From an uncultured Acidobacteriota bacterium (GTDB lineage: Bacteria; Acidobacteriota; Thermoanaerobaculia; UBA5066; Gp7-AA6), in NCBI GenBank assembly GCA_963847075.1, contig CAWJYL010000002.1:1608121-1672120 (forward strand): 64,000 bases of DNA, in the 5' to 3' direction. The notes under the pieces were generated by a model. That model worked only from the letters and a program-made list of their open reading frames with translations. It was not told where the DNA came from and did no database searches. The translations under genes were made by a program, and so were the position numbers. Below are positions 15,059 to 23,096 of the stretch, in pieces. The number at the start of each line of letters is the position of its first letter. The stretch's first letter is position 1.

Positions 15059-16374
15059 TTAGCTCGGTCGAAATCCCTTCGCCGCAATGAACGTTGGGCC
15101 TGCAAAGCGGGCTCCGCACCAGCTCCTCCTCGATCCGCAGGAGCTGGTTGTACTTGGCCACGCGGTCGCCGCGCGCACGGGGCCCCGTCTTGATCTGCCC
15201 GCGCCGTGGCGACCGCGAGGTCGGCGATGAAGTCATCCTCGGTCTCGCCCGAGCGGTGGCTGACGACCGTGCGCGTAACCGCCCGTCGCGCGCCACAGCG
15301 ATCGCGTCGAGCGTCTCGGTCACGGTGCCGATCTGGTTGAGCTTGATCAGGACGGCGTTGGCGACCTCCTCCGCGATGCCCTCGGCGAATGATCGCCGGG
15401 TTGGTGACGAAGATGTCGTCGCCGACGAGCTGGACCTTCTCGCCCAGGCGCTCGGTCAAGCAGCTTCCAGCCGTCCCAGTCGTTTTCGGCGAGGCCGTCC
15501 TCGATGGACACGATCGGGATACTGCCGCACCCAGTCCTCGTAGAGCGCGACCATCTCCTGCCGACGGAGCTTGCGGCCCGCCGGACTTGCGGAAGACGTA
15601 GCTCCCGTCCTCGAAGAACTCGCTGGCCGCGCGGATCGAGCGCGAGGACGACATCGTCGCCCGGCGTGTAGCCCGCCTGCTCGATCGCGCTGCGAGGATA
15701 CAGTCTCGAGCGCCTCCTCGTTCGCCTTGAGGTTCGGGCGCGAAGCCGCCCTCGTCGCCGACGGCCGTGGCGTAGCCCTTCTCCTTCAGGAACGACCTTG
15801 AGGGCCTGGAACGTCTCGGCGCCCATGCGCAGCGCCTCGCGGAAGCTCGGCGCGCCGACCGGGACGATCATGAACTCCTGGAAGTCCACGCTGTTGTCGG
15901 CGTGGACTGCCGCCGTTCGAGGACGTTCATCATCGGGCACCGGAAGCAGCGTGCGCCGTCCGCTCCGCCCAGGTAACGGTACAGCGGCAGGCCTCGCTGG
16001 CCGCAGCGGCCCGCGCGACCGCCATGCGACACGCCGAGGATGGCGTTGGCGCCGAGCTTGCTGTTTGTTCGGCGTGCCGTCGAGCGCGATCAGGCGAGCG
16101 TCGATCGACTCCTGGTCCGAGGCCTCGCTGCCCCGAACCGCAGGCGCGATCCTGTCATTGACGTTGGCGACCGCCTTCAGCACGCCCTTGCCGCCGTAAC
16201 CGCGCCGGGTCGCCGTCGCGCAGTTCGAGGGCCTCGCGGCAGCCGGTCGAAGCACCGGAAGGGACGGCCGCCCGGCCGGCGGTGCCGTCCTCCAGGCGAA
16301 CGTCCGACCTCGATGGTCGGGTTGCCACGCGAGTCGAGGATTTCACGTGCGTGGAGCAGGGCGATTCTGGCAAT
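15059..16374 (-). pseudogene. eno: enolase, heavily frameshifted remnant
   Basis: Enolase peptides are scattered over all three minus frames: [161 protein letters not shown]. There are at least six frame changes. ATT sits where the start codon is expected, after AGGAGG. Confidence 0.85.
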
Positions 16375-16404
16375 TCAGGCCTCCTGTCGGGGTCCTGATC
16401 GCGT

Positions 16405-17173
16405 TCAGCGCCCCGCGGTCCCGGGGCTTTCTTCCACGTCGACGACGAGCACGGTGACGTTGTCCCGGCCGCCGGCGTCATTCGCAGCGTGCACCAGCCT
16501 CTGACAGCAGCTCCTCGGGGTTGACGGCGTGCGCAAGGACATCGGCGATGTCGTCGTCGGTGACCATGTCCGTGAGGCCGTCACAGCAAAGGAGAAGTCG
16601 ATCGCCTGGCGCGAGCGAGAGCGGCAGGACGTCGGGAGCGCCGTTTCCGCCGCTCCCGACGGAACGGGTTAGGACGTGGGCGAGAGGAGAGTTGCGTAGA
16701 AGCACAACGTCGATGTCCGGGGATTGGCGCGCGAGCTCGGCCATAGCCGAGTGATCTTGCGTGAGGCAGGTCAGATGCCCTCGGCGCAAGAGATAGGCGC
16801 GGCTATCTCCGACATGCGCGACCCAGGCGGAGGGACCGGGGGCATGAATCGCAACGAGGGTGGTCGCCATGCCGGTGCGCTCGATCGAGGCCGTTCCGGA
16901 CTCATGGATCCGCTCGTCGGCGGTGCGAAAGGCGCGCAGGAGCAGCTCATCCCCGCCCGGCTGTCCCGCGCCGTTCTGGGGCCCTTCGTTGCGAATGACT
17001 GCTGCCAGCGTCTCGACGGCGATGCGACTCGCGACTTCCCCGGCCCGATGACCACCGACTCCATCGGCGAGAGCGAAGAGCCCTGACTCCGTGTCGATCA
17101 AGTAGGCATCTTCATCCCGTCGCCGGACGAGGCCGGGATCGCTTTGGGCCGCCGCGCGAAGGAACAGATTCAT
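16405..17173 (-). pseudogene. PP2C-family Ser/Thr protein phosphatase, C-terminal frameshift
   Basis: Reads MNLFLRAAAQSDPGLVRRRDEDAY...LADGVGGHRAGEVAS...VGDSRAYL...[12 protein letters not shown]. The ORF stops at 16478 after [14 protein letters not shown]. The final PP2C motif ([25 protein letters not shown]) is in the +1 frame and runs to TGA 16405-16407. ATG 17173 overlaps the upstream stop as ATGA. Confidence 0.75.
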
Positions 17174-18396
17174 GGGGTCGCTCTCCCCGGCCGCAGAGCG
17201 ACGGCACCGCTGAGCTGGAGCGCCGCCGCAACGACGAGGCCGATGGACGGGCTGGCGGGGAAGAGAGACCAAAGCGTGCCCACGAGCGCGCTCGAAACGA
17301 AGTCACCGATGCCGTTCGTGGCAGCGAGCAGCCCCATTCCCACTCCCCGCTGAGCCGGGGCCAGCAGGGACGCCGCGTAGGCCTTCTCGGCGACCTCCTC
17401 GCAGGCAATGTAGAGGCCGGAGCAGACGAACAGGGCGAGCAGTGTTCCCGGTGTCGCGGGCAGCAGCGCGAATCCGGCGGTGGTCGCCGCGGCGAATAGG
17501 TAGCCGACGATGACGACCCGTCGGACGCCCACCCGGTCCGCCAGGGCGCCAATCGGGAGCGCGGCAACCGAGCTGACGGCGTTGTGGAGGACGTAGAGCG
17601 CGATGGCCAGGCTCGCCGCGCTCCACGAGAAGAGAGTTCCTTCCACGTGCTGGGTCACATAGAGAATCAGCAGGGTTCTCGAGAAGTCCCCGCACCCGAA
17701 GATCAGGATCGCCACGAGATATCTGTGGAAGGGTCTTCCCGTCCCGGCGAGGTGCATTCGCAGCGTCTTACTTGCCGCGGGGTGCCGGTTGGGGCGTTCG
17801 GTGACGAGGACCGCGATGGACAGGAACGCGAGAAGTCCGGGCAGAAGCGAGACGAACATGACGTGCCGGCTGGAGACGCCCCGGGCCAGCAGGACCACGG
17901 CGAGAAGCGGCCCGATGACGGCCCCGAGAGCGTCGCCGGCGCGTTCCATGCCGAAGGCCTTGCCGACGGCTTCGGGCGGCGCCGCCTCCGAAACCAGAAC
18001 GTCCCGGGGTGCAGAACGGGTGCCGCGGCCGACCCAGGCCGCGACCCGACACAGCATCACTTGCCAGGCAGTCGCGCAGAGGCCGATCGCGGCTATTCCA
18101 ACTGCGGTCACGAGGTATCCGATGGAGGCGAGGGGCTTGCGCCGCTCGACGCGGTCCGTCATGACGCCGCCCCAGAGCTTGGCAATTGCAGAGAGCCCAT
18201 CCGCGCTGCCCTCGATCCAGCCGAGCGCTGCCGGTCCGGCCCCGAGGGTGAGAAGGAATGATGGAAGAACGGCCGTCGCCAGCTCGTGCGAGACGTCCGA
18301 GAAGAGGCTTGCGAGCGCCGCCCCGAGAGTGGAGCGGTTGAGCCATCCACTGGGTGCCGCTCCGGAGGGTAACCCGTGCAGGGCCCTGCGCCTCAC
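17170..18396 (-). CDS. MFS transporter
   Basis: Intact 408-aa ORF with about 12 predicted TM segments and MFS-like loops (GGVMTDRVERRKP, GALADRVGVRR). GTG 18396 overlaps the upstream stop as GTGA. Confidence 0.8.
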   Translation of the reverse strand: MRRRALHGLPSGAAPSGWLNRSTLGAALASLFSDVSHELATAVLPSFLLTLGAGPAALGWIEGSADGLSAIAKLWGGVMTDRVERRKPLASIGYLVTAVGIAAIGLCATAWQVMLCRVAAWVGRGTRSAPRDVLVSEAAPPEAVGKAFGMERAGDALGAVIGPLLAVVLLARGVSSRHVMFVSLLPGLLAFLSIAVLVTERPNRHPAASKTLRMHLAGTGRPFHRYLVAILIFGCGDFSRTLLILYVTQHVEGTLFSWSAASLAIALYVLHNAVSSVAALPIGALADRVGVRRVVIVGYLFAAATTAGFALLPATPGTLLALFVCSGLYIACEEVAEKAYAASLLAPAQRGVGMGLLAATNGIGDFVSSALVGTLWSLFPASPSIGLVVAAALQLSGAVALRPGRATP

Positions 18397-22583: not shown

Positions 22584-22593
22584 GGTTCCTCCC

Positions 22594-22977
22594 CTAGCCT
22601 CCGATCGCCAGCTTCGCGCATCCGATGCCAGCAATCCCCGCCAGAAAACAAGTGACCACCGTTGCGAGAACGTTCATGGATCCGTACAGGACCGAACCGT
22701 CCTGGAGATACTTGATCGTCTCGTAGTTGAAGGTGGAGTACGTCGTAAAGCCCCCCATGACCCCCGTCGTCAGGGCCAGACGCAGCGTCGGCGTCAGAAT
22801 CTGCGTCGTCATCCCGATGTGCATGAGCACGCCCATGAGGAAAGAGCCGATGACGTTGACGGCGAACGTGCCGGTCGGAAACCTCGGGCCGAACTGCAGA
22901 AGCACCCAGCCCGACAGGATGTAGCGCGCCCCTGTGCCCGCCGCGCCGCCAAGGCAAATCCAAAGGAACCGCCCCAT
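22594..22977 (-). CDS. crcB: fluoride ion channel CrcB/FluC
   Basis: Reads MGRFLWICLGGAAGTGARYILSGWV...PTGTFAVNVIGSFLMG...TGVMGGFTTYSTFNYE, canonical CrcB (127 aa from ATG 22977). The longer ORF-track start at 23049 would overlap the riboswitch terminator. Confidence 0.85.
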   Translation of the reverse strand: MGRFLWICLGGAAGTGARYILSGWVLLQFGPRFPTGTFAVNVIGSFLMGVLMHIGMTTQILTPTLRLALTTGVMGGFTTYSTFNYETIKYLQDGSVLYGSMNVLATVVTCFLAGIAGIGCAKLAIGG

Positions 22978-23010
22978 TCCGACCCCCCCTGCGTTCTGGC
23001 TATTTGGGCC

Positions 23011-23096
23011 AAAAAAAACTCCTACGAGTCGTGGCTTCGTAGGAGTCATTGGCCGACCCCGTAGGGCGGGCGGTTCTGGCGGACTCCACCGCCTTC
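23011..23096 (-). promoter_or_regulatory. fluoride riboswitch (crcB motif) with terminator expression platform
   Basis: The minus strand reads AGGCGGUGGAGUCCGCCAGAACCGCCCGCCCUACGGGGUCGGCCAAUGACUCCUAC. P1 is GGCG/CGCC and the pseudoknot is GGAGUC/GACUCC. Next comes CUCCUACGA-agccacgac-UCGUAGGAG plus U8 (23047-23011), which overlaps the pseudoknot strand. It lies 33 nt upstream of the crcB ATG. Confidence 0.85.

Follow-up and report, generated by a model that had tools for sequence, protein, structure and literature searches.

Two dynamin-like GTPases encoded behind a fluoride riboswitch in an uncultured acidobacterium belong to a distinct bacterial dynamin-like protein (DLP) orthogroup, which in nearly every sampled genome lies inside fluoride-riboswitch clusters. 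Since the orthogroup almost always sits in such clusters, often with a riboswitch directly ahead, the pair is an apparently uncatalogued core member of the fluoride regulon. These GTPases look like an unrecognized component, and a widespread one, of how bacteria respond to fluoride. The explanation we prefer as a whole is that the riboswitch controls an operon whose dynamin pair serves in fluoride-induced membrane repair, and that the frameshifts found in several of its genes are consensus errors. We give it slightly better than even odds (about 0.55). Positions below refer to the window, the whole 64,000-nt stretch analysed.

A fluoride riboswitch heads a packed seven-gene operon

The riboswitch aptamer (crcB motif, RF01734) occupies 23033..23102 on the minus strand. 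A cmscan search against Rfam matched the full model (1-64) at 23102-23033(-) with 41.8 bits, above the GA of 34 (E=3.3e-8), and a covariance model built in this analysis gave the same aptamer 67.5 bits. Its elements are P1 (GGCG/CGCC), P2 and a pseudoknot between the loop GGAGUC (23086-23081) and GACUCC (23047-23042). In 122 related copies, 98.3% of the cells were paired, compared with 34-61% in slid controls; pairing in the pseudoknot reached 99.9% and included A-U to G-C swaps. The expression platform (23011..23047, minus strand) is an intrinsic terminator. In the minimum free energy (MFE) fold it forms an 11-bp hairpin at 23047-23017, in which 23047-23037 pairs with 23027-23017, and U8 follows at 23018-23011. 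The 5′ arm of the terminator is the 3′ strand of the pseudoknot. This MFE fold has a dG of -42.2 kcal/mol (z=-3.6); of 200 shuffled sequences, 0 folded equally well. In conclusion, the element is a canonical fluoride riboswitch, a transcriptional ON switch acting by anti-termination. Upon binding of Mg-F the pseudoknot would form and withhold its 3′ strand from the terminator; because that strand is then unavailable, the polymerase would read through. The riboswitch, its P1, its pseudoknot and the shared terminator strand had been proposed by a sequence-only reading, and both the Rfam model and the MFE fold bear that proposal out; the sequence given there is also correct.

Seven genes follow on the same strand. 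The first, crcB (22594..22977), encodes an intact Fluc fluoride channel of 127 aa (Pfam CRCB, 94.2 bits, profile 1-103/103) and is 58% identical to its orthologue in the related locus L003, which passes TIGR00494. Next comes a small DUF190 (COG1993) protein (22219..22583) with one frameshift near 22390; its Pfam domain is read in two frames (profile 2-60 and 55-97), and tblastn against L003 gives 79% and 73%. The short GTPase DLP-2 (20426..22188, GTG start; Pfam Dynamin_N, 92.5 bits) would measure ~570-585 aa when intact. It has frameshifts near 22090 and 21360, with the N-terminal piece in another frame, matches L003 DLP2 at 70% and 52% by tblastn, and retains the P-loop GQFKRGKS, DTPG and NKAD. 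The long GTPase DLP-1 (18393..20433, ATG start; Dynamin_N, 72.9 bits), ~680-700 aa when intact, has an N-terminal helical domain of ~190 aa, an in-frame TAG at 20334-20332 and a frameshift near 19020 (tblastn 63% and 40% to L003; homologues 69% identical). An intact MFS transporter of 408 aa follows (17170..18396, GTG start; Pfam MFS_1, 116 bits; 77% to L003), for which no specific NCBIfam subfamily was found. The PP2C Ser/Thr phosphatase (16405..17173, ATG start; Pfam PP2C_2 and PP2C) is Stp1/IreP-like and has a frameshift near 16525. It is matched by tblastn in two frames, and on NF033484 its orthologue in L003 reaches 208 bits, below the cutoff of 230. The last gene, enolase (15054..16380, 3′ end uncertain within 15054-14925), was recovered by tblastn with the intact enolase of L014 (Enolase_N and Enolase_C). 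It consists of at least 14 in-frame pieces across three frames, with ~80% identity and no stops within the pieces.

The junctions were read base by base. A gap of 10 nt separates crcB from DUF190, and 30 nt then precede the GTG start of DLP-2. The DLP-2 stop overlaps the DLP-1 ATG in ATGCCTGA at 20433-20426, the DLP-1 stop overlaps the MFS start in GTGA at 18396-18393, and the MFS stop overlaps the PP2C start in ATGA at 17173-17170; PP2C and enolase are ~30 nt apart. L003, whose orthologous operon is intact, has the same 4-nt overlaps. The packed head-to-tail order reported previously is confirmed. The earlier statement that the operon holds no internal hairpin with a U-run also stands, as its 6 terminator-like sites do not exceed the 6.9 +/- 2.4 expected by chance, and a promoter scan of the minus strand yielded nothing sigma-70-like within the operon. 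We infer a single, translationally coupled operon, crcB-DUF190-DLP2-DLP1-MFS-PP2C-enolase, which is probably co-transcribed and induced by fluoride under riboswitch control.

A second riboswitch heads a convergent operon

A second fluoride riboswitch, not mentioned in the sequence-only reading, lies on the plus strand at 13004..13078 (RF01734, 48.7 bits). A promoter scan and an alignment with L003 placed a promoter-like TTGACA-17-GAGAAT upstream (12977-13005) and CUCCUGC...GCAGGAG-U5 downstream. It leads three plus-strand genes, which converge with the crcB-to-enolase operon. The first encodes a CPA2-family cation/H+ antiporter (13153..14345; Pfam Na_H_Exchanger, 101 bits; TIGR00932) that matches L003 by tblastn at 99% and 87% in two frames, with a 1-nt deletion near 13395 visible in the DNA alignment. 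The second encodes a universal stress protein (Usp; 14365..14781; tblastn 51% to L003 Usp), whose translation is frame-damaged by indels. The third encodes a conserved 88-aa Cys-x2-Cys protein (14785..15041; tblastn 69% to L003), which has no match in Pfam or NCBIfam and keeps its position in L001, L003 and L004. Each of these three loci carries both riboswitches.

The riboswitch-DLP linkage is conserved across phyla

A contig scan found relatives in 443 species genomes, and the best 80, picked by DLP-1 similarity only, were analysed. One or more fluoride riboswitches were present within 10 kb in 73 of the 80 genomes. A same-strand riboswitch lay at most 400 nt upstream of DLP1 in 49 of them and 0.4-3 kb upstream in 16 more. 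The linkage is thus found again in some 80 other species. A fluoride context was found in 78/80 loci and was absent only from L070 and the truncated L084. In a 15-locus subset, 13/13 DLP-adjacent aptamers scored above the Rfam GA. Among the first genes behind 136 aptamers, 49 were DLP1 and 13 were DLP2 (62/136). The aptamers ahead of DLP genes fall into several sequence subtypes. Since 37 of the 49 DLP1-adjacent aptamers are of one subtype and the 80 loci are phylogenetically related, there are fewer independent events than the locus count suggests.

At least seven gene orders were observed, including riboswitch>DLP1>crcB>DUF190>DLP2 (17 loci), riboswitch>DLP2>DLP1 (6), riboswitch>DLP1>DLP2 (5) and the window type (3). 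The loci come from six or more phyla (Acidobacteriota, Planctomycetota, Myxococcota, Verrucomicrobiota, Binatota and Eisenbacteria), and also from Methanoregula. The recurrent cargo comprises the DLP pair, crcB, DUF190, the CPA2 antiporter, Usp and enolase (25/80, sometimes directly behind an aptamer). An MFS gene was found in 19/80 loci and PP2C in only 2/80, plus L004 and the window; in L004 an aptamer (290-360) immediately precedes DLP-DLP-MFS-PP2C without crcB. MFS and especially PP2C are lineage-limited additions. Thus, of the dynamin-pair/MFS/PP2C module put forward earlier, the DLP linkage is conserved, but the module is not uniform.

The window shares its aptamer and terminator-overlap ON logic with the RF01734 operons of Bacillus cereus (crcB) and Pseudomonas syringae (eriC-F), and it has the canonical fluoride cargo of known operons: crcB, DUF190, a Na+/H+-type antiporter, Usp and enolase. 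It differs from them in the two dynamin-like GTPases, MFS and PP2C. The aptamer density of its relatives, up to 7 in 20 kb, is also unusual. Baker et al. reportedly described a fluoride 'super-regulon' in 2012. In the literature searched, fluoride, riboswitch and dynamin were not found together, nor was a description of a fluoride-controlled dynamin-pair/MFS/PP2C module, as had been supposed; the catalogue of Baker et al. 2012 lay outside the scope of this search, and a passing earlier mention is possible. The gene classes given in three reviews (PMC11139923, PMC7266159, PMC2864571) do not include dynamin-like GTPases, MFS or PP2C. The fluoride-induced FRM operon of Enterobacter cloacae, a multi-gene cluster studied experimentally, combines crcB and enolase with other metabolic and transport genes; it is Proteobacterial, has a plasmid or island context, and differs from the window in having no dynamin-like GTPases (PMC5533749).

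Class and proposed role of the dynamin pair

The G1-G4 residues are invariant in 30 DLP homologues, and no TM helix was found in the DLPs. PDB sequence matches were to IniA, the Campylobacter jejuni DLPs and BDLP (5owv_C, 2j68 and 6j72 for DLP-2), with 13-19% identity to solved DLPs. The best match of DLP-1 in both sequence (5.5e-14) and fold (5.2e-15) is mycobacterial IniA (6j72); the fold search (Foldseek) used an AF2 model with pLDDT 82 and also gave BDLP (3e-14) and 5owv_A (8e-12). IniA, like the window DLPs, is soluble and lacks a TM anchor; its tip interacts with lipid. Its operon, iniBAC, encodes paired DLPs (IniA/IniC), is induced by chemical stress and is thought to maintain plasma-membrane integrity; it differs in belonging to Actinomycetota, in responding to cell-wall inhibitors via protein regulators rather than a riboswitch, and in having no transporter. 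C. jejuni DLP1/DLP2 (5owv/5oxf) are also encoded by adjacent long and short genes, with the G domain starting at residue ~150-190 in the long DLP and ~50-60 in the short one. Both window DLPs match both C. jejuni chains, at 13-17% identity only. The C. jejuni pair forms a hetero-tetramer that tethers membranes; it differs from the window pair, for which fluoride induction is predicted, in having no known inducer and no ion-stress link. Bacillus subtilis DynA can tether and fuse membranes, and it shields cells from pore-forming agents and from phage. In the NCBIfam DynA model, the D1 half is matched by DLP-2 and the D2 half by DLP-1, with 48 and 38 bits, far under the cutoff of 1600; DynA itself is a single fused two-headed polypeptide with no known ligand switch.

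Because of this homology to IniA, DynA and Cj-DLP1/2, we favour a pair for fluoride-induced membrane tethering or repair over spare enzyme copies; membrane repair was the second option raised in the sequence-only reading. DLP-1, with its 'assembly-like' N-terminal helical domain, and the short DLP-2 are predicted to assemble into a hetero-oligomer resembling that of Campylobacter DLP1/DLP2 or the arrangement of the two DynA halves. Upon fluoride induction, the complex may bind the cytoplasmic membrane via putative Pro/Trp/Phe-rich tip loops and, using GTP, could tether, fuse or reseal it. Membrane integrity and proton-motive force would thereby be kept during F- export by Fluc and pH correction by the CPA2 antiporter. 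The pair would be the fluoride-specific counterpart of IniA/IniC and DynA, which are repair systems induced by stress, with enolase as a known compensatory copy and MFS and PP2C as lineage-specific accessories. No publication known to us connects fluoride with membrane damage of a kind that would require a dynamin.

Alternatively, the operon might supply extra or fluoride-insensitive copies of poisoned enzymes: enolase (Mg-F-Pi), PP2C (a Mn/Mg phosphatase) and the GTPases (GDP-AlFx/MgFx). GDP-AlF4- is the classical trap of dynamin G domains, enolase recurs as described above, and riboswitches in the sampled loci also head metallophosphoesterase and HAD genes. Riboswitch-linked enolase and phosphatases have been read in this way (PMC11139923). 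For enolase, a compensatory copy is the accepted idea. For the DLPs, however, the earlier suggestion of spare or insensitive copies fits poorly. With 78/80 loci within fluoride clusters, they resemble a dedicated effector more than a duplicate of a housekeeping enzyme. Moreover, bacterial DLPs are generally non-essential, which leaves a spare without obvious need, their G motifs show nothing that marks them as insensitive, and PP2C is rare. We regard compensation as an unlikely account of the operon.

Frameshifts are confined to an accessory island

The frameshift damage had not been flagged previously. Single-base frameshifts affect DUF190, DLP-2 (two), DLP-1 (one), PP2C and enolase (at least 13), and lesions also occur in the antiporter, Usp and the 88-aa ORF. 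All breaks fall within 13.1-32 kb of the window, while flanking genes gave full-length single-frame domain matches. A tmRNA gene lies at 12338..12698 on the plus strand (Rfam tmRNA, 179.6 bits), and a repeat search found its 3′ 26 nt repeated exactly at 28978, 32126 and 36304, with 0 expected by chance; a 108-nt repeat family is also present. The tmRNA-3′ repeats mark tandem islands, of which the first holds the fluoride cluster, and the damaged segment is bounded by those at 12698 and 32126. Since the pattern is indel-only and confined to 13-32 kb, it suggests assembly error in an accessory island. Most likely, the frameshifts are errors of the consensus, located in a strain-variable island that is integrated at ssrA, and probably do not represent gene decay.

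If the frameshifts and the in-frame TAG were real, the window operon would be non-functional: the island would be pseudogenized, with only crcB and MFS functional and the riboswitch controlling mostly junk. The number of damaged genes, the TAG, the local rather than window-wide damage and the position of the sole indel resolved at the DNA level, outside a homopolymer, are all compatible with such decay. Nevertheless, real decay should be dominated by substitutions, whereas the lesions are almost purely 1-nt indels, between which residues are highly conserved and the true frames have not accumulated stops. Riboswitch, terminator and coupling overlaps have all been spared, the damage maps to an accessory segment bounded by att sites, in which a low read depth is plausible, and many relatives come from long-read MAG projects. 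A dead relic is thus improbable, and slightly more so than compensation.

Other roles considered for the dynamin pair

The pair might instead bind GDP-AlFx/MgFx in locked G-G dimers, sequestering metal fluoride or signalling for membrane tethering. Many hosts are MAGs from acidic peat or soil (palsa, bog, fen, SPRUCE isolates), where Al3+ and HF are available; the nucleotide-binding motifs are invariant, and in sandwiched operons the pair is probably co-expressed stoichiometrically with Fluc. Yet a sponge would require very high expression, no role-specific sequence feature was found, and the idea is entirely speculative; we consider it a long shot. Finally, an anti-phage 'Dynamins' (LeoABC-like) defence, or an unrelated neighbour merely beside crcB, is very improbable: weak PADLOC matches to LeoA and LeoBC (51, 31, 21 and 16 bits) and a mobile-looking island with toxin-antitoxin genes speak for it, but the Leo matches cover only part of the G domain, the third Leo component is absent, riboswitches stand directly ahead of DLP genes as counted above, the linkage to crcB, DUF190, antiporter and enolase persists across phyla and gene orders, and start/stop overlaps bind the DLPs to MFS and PP2C.

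Fluoride riboswitches and their expression platforms

A search with the Rfam fluoride-riboswitch covariance model (RF01734) matched window positions 23102-23033 on the minus strand with a score of 41.8 bits (E=3.3e-8; model positions 1-64 of 64), above the curated gathering threshold of 34 bits. A second copy, on which the sequence-only reading was silent, was found at 13004-13078 on the plus strand (48.7 bits). The minimum free energy fold of 23102-23000 contained both stems of the aptamer as well as a hairpin of 11 bp (23047-23017) with U8 behind it. The stability of the fold (dG -42.2 kcal/mol, z=-3.6) was equalled by none of 200 shuffled sequences. 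The 5' arm of the terminator hairpin is GACUCC, the strand that otherwise forms the pseudoknot. The covariance model and the fold thus bore out what the sequence-only reading had proposed for this leader: a fluoride aptamer, complete and with the sequence it had quoted, and a terminator built from the pseudoknot strand. By its predicted structure, the crcB leader is a textbook ON-switch design, in which the terminator would compete with the aptamer.

Across 122 related copies, the pairs of P1, P2 and the pseudoknot were 98.3% paired, compared with 34-61% in controls with slid partners; for the pseudoknot, formed by the P1 loop and the 3' tail, the value was 99.9%. Compensatory changes were present in all three helices, and eight pairs had changed on both sides. 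The expression platforms of the relatives were mixed: T-runs followed 16-30% of the aptamers, compared with a background of 3.4%, while others had a GGAG-type Shine-Dalgarno sequence and a start codon 30-50 nt downstream of the aptamer. A division of the aptamers into a G..C subtype with crcB/DLP and an A..U subtype with the antiporter was dropped, since it was true of the closest relatives only and not across the 122 copies. In a consensus scan, no sigma-70 promoter was found upstream of the crcB riboswitch; the second riboswitch is preceded by a TTGACA-17-GAGAAT site.

A packed operon behind the riboswitch

Pfam identified the minus-strand genes of the window as encoding CrcB, DUF190, two Dynamin_N GTPases (a short and a long dynamin-like protein, DLP-2 and DLP-1), an MFS transporter and a PP2C phosphatase; the enolase was identified by tblastn with an intact orthologue. 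The window CrcB matched PF02537 with 94.2 bits over profile positions 1-103 of 103, and its orthologue in L003, a related locus, matched TIGR00494 with 90 bits (cutoff 80.45). The window PP2C passed the general Pfam models PP2C and PP2C_2, and the L003 orthologue scored 208.4 bits against NF033484 (Stp1/IreP family), below the equivalog cutoff of 230. Enolase_N and Enolase_C were both found in the intact orthologue of a second relative, L014; in the window they did not share one frame, the protein being complete but broken into at least 14 pieces that lie in three frames.

The junctions were read base by base on the minus strand. crcB and DUF190 are separated by 10 nt, and DUF190 is followed after 30 nt by the GTG start of DLP-2. 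DLP-2 and DLP-1 overlap by ATGCCTGA (20433-20426), DLP-1 and MFS by GTGA (18396-18393), and MFS and PP2C by ATGA (17173-17170); a gap of about 30 nt precedes the enolase. Terminator-like sites within the operon were no more frequent than by chance (6, compared with 6.9 +/- 2.4 in shuffles), and the consensus scan found no sigma-70-like promoter on its minus strand. These gaps and overlaps agree with the single packed operon described earlier. The window was shown to hold an RNA switch and, as judged from its gene spacing, a coupled operon.

The second riboswitch heads an operon of a CPA2 antiporter, Usp and a conserved 88-aa protein, which converges on the enolase. The last of these, a CxxC protein of 87-88 aa, was always the final gene of the riboswitch-antiporter-Usp operon (L003:14035-14298 on the minus strand; window ~14785-15041 on the plus strand; also the relatives L001 and L004) and had no match in Pfam or NCBIfam. 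Over its first 81 residues (window 13153-13395) the antiporter was 99% identical to L003 and over the remainder 87%, with only 51-79% identity for the genes beside it. Either the antiporter would be unusually constrained or it may have been exchanged recently.

The two GTPases

Both GTPases scored above the Dynamin_N cutoff of 27 bits (PF00350; DLP-2 92.5, DLP-1 72.9). The G1-G4 motifs GxxxxGKS, T, DTPG and (N/S)KxD were invariant across 30 homologues and were also present in the window translations. By sequence, the nearest solved structures were IniA (6j72), the Campylobacter DLP1/DLP2 pair (5owv) and Nostoc BDLP (2j68). The AlphaFold model of DLP-1 (pLDDT 81.9) shows a helical domain of ~190 residues at the N-terminus, a G domain and long helical bundles (helices 394-675), and a Foldseek search with it retrieved IniA (5e-15), BDLP (3e-14) and Cj-DLP1 (8e-12), as well as Cj-DLP2 and Fzo1/mitofusins. 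DLP-1, to which the predicted structure and the neck and trunk assignment apply, is by this model of the BDLP/mitofusin class with its helical neck and trunk. No transmembrane segment was found in DLP-1 or DLP-2; at the predicted tip of the trunk, loops rich in Pro, Trp and Phe are conserved (DLP-1 ~547-587; DLP-2 'RRFYFDELFELAP').

Against the NCBIfam model of B. subtilis DynA, DLP-2 aligned weakly to the first half and DLP-1 to the second. Long and short forms are co-encoded in 63/80 loci, and they may form a hetero-oligomer of the Cj-DLP1/DLP2 kind. Assignment to the anti-phage 'Dynamins' system (LeoA/LeoBC, PADLOC) was rejected: the matches covered part of the G domain (51, 31, 21 and 16 bits), and the LeoABC architecture is absent from the window locus. 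A DLP-1 search returned numerous intact family proteins of ~680-700 aa, the best 69% identical, under the generic name 'dynamin family protein' or the wrong name 'EngB'.

Conservation of the riboswitch-dynamin linkage

Three related loci (L001, L003 and L004) have a layout of the crcB-DUF190-DLP-DLP type with intact genes, to which MFS and PP2C are added in L003. Each also has the convergent antiporter-Usp-88-aa operon, and Rfam found both riboswitches in each. In L004, the aptamer at 290-360 stands immediately before DLP-DLP-MFS-PP2C with no crcB between; a third riboswitch there (12011-12085) heads a 121-aa ORF (12093-12458) that matched no family. The highest DNA identity of the window to any of the loci examined was 81%, at the antiporter (blastn).

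We then searched the genomes of GTDB species, one for each, with the DLP-1 family alignment as the query. A DLP-1 relative was present in 443 species genomes, and the best 80 loci of these 443 were examined. A covariance model built on nine Rfam-validated aptamers gave 154 matches in the 80 loci, and the 138 with at least 27 bits were counted. At least one such aptamer was present in 73/80 loci. The scan for this linkage in other genomes, as the sequence-only reading had suggested, upheld it: in 49/80 loci an aptamer on the same strand as the DLP lay no more than 400 nt upstream of the DLP-1 match, and in 16 more at 0.4-3 kb. The 15 loci that lacked a close upstream aptamer were mostly longer riboswitch-headed operons or stood beside crcB and DUF190; only L070 and L084, a truncated locus, had no fluoride context. 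When a subset of 15 loci was checked, each of the 13 DLP-adjacent aptamers passed the Rfam threshold, and the two loci with no match were also empty in Rfam.

The gene orders were taken from tblastn annotation, in preference to a longest-ORF rule for the first gene after the aptamer, which undercounts crcB in high-GC DNA (at L007_7289 it called a spurious 292-aa ORF). Seventeen loci had the order riboswitch-DLP-1-crcB-DUF190-DLP-2, and four more had it with the riboswitch farther upstream or absent. The orders riboswitch-DLP-2-DLP-1 (6 loci) and riboswitch-DLP-1-DLP-2 (5 loci) followed, along with riboswitch-DLP-1 accompanied by a separate riboswitch-antiporter-DUF190-DLP-2 (5 loci) and the window type, riboswitch-crcB-DUF190-DLP-2-DLP-1 (3 loci). 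A second DLP lay inside the examined stretch in 63/80 loci; DUF190 was found in 49, crcB in 36, the antiporter in 28, enolase in 25, MFS and Usp in 19 each, and PP2C in 2. The hosts were Acidobacteriota (56), Planctomycetota (9), Myxococcota and 'delta' (7), Verrucomicrobiota (2), Binatota, Eisenbacteria and two Methanoregula archaea. The latter, the MAGs L083 and L084, are methanogens with the same DLP-1 orthologue, likely through inter-domain transfer in acidic peat; L083 has riboswitch-enolase-DLP-1 and a divergent riboswitch-DLP-2.

An aptamer subtype with U..U at columns 15 and 22 of alignment A3 was directly upstream of DLP-1 in 37/38 cases. This near-restriction to DLP-1 suggests that aptamer and DLP-1 were passed on as one unit. 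Because these 37 have the subtype in common, many of the DLP-1-adjacent cases are inherited rather than independent. Other aptamer subtypes also precede DLP-1 and DLP-2, and the diversity of gene order argues for selection that maintained the linkage. The DLP orthogroup is tied near-obligately to fluoride riboswitches and fluoride-response genes, and we put the probability that the DLP pair is a genuine, conserved fluoride-riboswitch target at about 0.9.

Frameshifts and island context in the window

Compared with the intact L003 orthologues, DUF190, DLP-2, DLP-1, PP2C and the antiporter of the window are each split over adjacent frames, and DLP-1 has an in-frame TAG at 20334-20332. The enolase changes frame at least 13 times in 1.3 kb, its pieces being ~80% identical to the intact enolase with no stops in the true frame. 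A 7-state Viterbi frame decoder confined the breaks to 13.1-32 kb, the only stretch where single-base frameshifts are dense; on either side of it, at 1-12 kb and 33-57 kb, genes gave full-length domain matches in a single frame. Window-wide frameshifts, as suggested by a GC3 frame plot, were rejected, since Pfam showed the apparent switches at 7-9.5 kb to be ordinary gene boundaries.

One end of the damaged zone is marked by the tmRNA gene (12338-12698), the other by an exact copy of the 3'-terminal 26 nt of that gene (32126-32151). Further plus-strand copies lie at 28978-29003 and 36304-36329 (exact) and at 50298-50323 (2 mismatches), where 0 would be expected by chance. These repeats look like the boundaries of tandem islands at the ssrA integration site, of which the damaged zone would be islands 1 and 2; no integrase was found near them among the ORFs tested. 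Since the spectrum is almost purely of indels and falls in an att-bounded accessory segment, poor consensus at low read depth best explains the damage, and the window copy is probably mis-assembled rather than dead. Real decay is a lesser possibility.

The islands carry other genes. An arsenic and redox resistance cluster adjoins the fluoride operon inside the damaged zone (23897-31955, minus strand), with two LMW-PTP-type ArsC, ACR3 (in at least four frame pieces), ArsR, a permease with a thioredoxin-like protein, ArsR-rhodanese, a DsrE-like protein and a thioredoxin/AhpC-like lipoprotein. Two toxin-antitoxin-like pairs, RHH/RelE-ParE-like and BrnT/BrnA-like (29067-29568 and 32817-33387, plus strand), each lie close to a tmRNA-repeat boundary, on its inner side. 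In the non-coding stretch beyond the third tmRNA repeat, a GC-rich repeat of 76 nt with palindromic ends occurs three times (32691-32766, 33382-33457 and 33587-33662; 74-92% identical).

Possible functions and significance

To our knowledge, the bacterial DLPs studied so far (BDLP, DynA, IniA, LeoA, Cj-DLP1/2) have no clean physiological trigger, and we know of no membrane component in current models of fluoride toxicity, which invoke enzyme inhibition, acidification and export. In the mechanism that we propose, cytoplasmic fluoride would stabilise the aptamer and let transcription read through, so that Fluc, DUF190 and a hetero-oligomer of the long and short DLPs would be made. The hetero-oligomer would bind the inner face of the membrane and, at the expense of GTP, tether, fuse or reseal it. 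During export of F- and correction of pH by the CPA2 antiporter, this would keep the membrane intact and maintain the proton-motive force. Such a machine would be akin to two stress-induced systems, IniA/IniC and DynA. Membrane repair as the specific function of the DLP pair is a tentative proposal, with the odds somewhat against it. We consider it unlikely that DLP-1 and DLP-2 form a fluoride-dedicated membrane machine working physically with Fluc and DUF190, perhaps switched by metal-fluoride through a GDP-AlFx/MgFx-locked G-G dimer that drives tethering. If the metal-fluoride switch were real, fluoride would have two points of action, the RNA switch and the protein itself, and would be the first defined physiological ligand and inducer for bacterial dynamins.

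The sequence-only reading was right in what it observed, and its interpretation is supported in part. It had offered, besides membrane repair, spare copies of fluoride-sensitive enzymes, which is reasonable for the riboswitch-linked enolase and phosphatases and consistent with PMC11139923, but fits poorly with a dedicated DLP orthogroup. That the DLP pair acts as a metal-fluoride sensor or sink is speculative.

The riboswitch is of a known kind; its dynamin cargo is widely conserved and, in the literature searched, new. The riboswitch-associated genes listed in PMC11139923, PMC7266159 and PMC2864571 encode exporters, antiporters, pyrophosphatase, HAD phosphatases, enolase, formate-hydrogen lyase, chorismate mutase and mutS, and no dynamin or GTPase is among them. 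No paper joining the fluoride/crcB riboswitch with dynamin was found in the literature searched, the original catalogue of Baker et al. 2012 lying outside it, in agreement with the earlier remark that no described fluoride-controlled dynamin-pair/MFS/PP2C module was known. A whole DLP orthogroup, in at least 443 species-level genomes, is under a ligand-specific RNA switch; NaF should induce these DLPs, and their function is testable in soil Acidobacteriota, Planctomycetota and Myxococcota. Bacterial dynamins would thereby be given a defined inducer. A membrane component of fluoride toxicity is implied, and the findings as a whole have a bearing on engineered fluoride tolerance for organofluorine degradation.

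Further riboswitch-linked families in the relatives

Several families not listed before are added to the fluoride regulon, among them small AAA_16 ATPases and DUF6062, along with a HEAT/zinc-ribbon protein and the conserved 88-aa protein. AAA_16/STAND-like P-loop proteins of ~250-280 aa stand directly behind aptamers, often between aptamer and DLP-1 (L022:2867, L054:8781, L059:9066, L062:8992, L063:9016 and six others; L056:7436, L077:9107), and this family is not in the published fluoride regulon lists examined. A Cys-rich DUF6062 protein (~270 aa) comes first after the aptamer at L030:6308, L055:5308, L078:3618 and L082:8195 (Acidobacteriota, Eisenbacteria). Aptamer density is extreme in L008, L010 and L045, with 6-7 fluoride aptamers per ~22 kb, which head MutS-related, HAD, HEAT/zinc-ribbon, metallophosphoesterase and HycD-like genes besides DLPs. 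In L073, a Bryobacteraceae MAG, three copies of the Acido-Lenti-1 sRNA (RF01687) lie near the fluoride cluster, at 30-75, 8488-8534 and 8650-8694.
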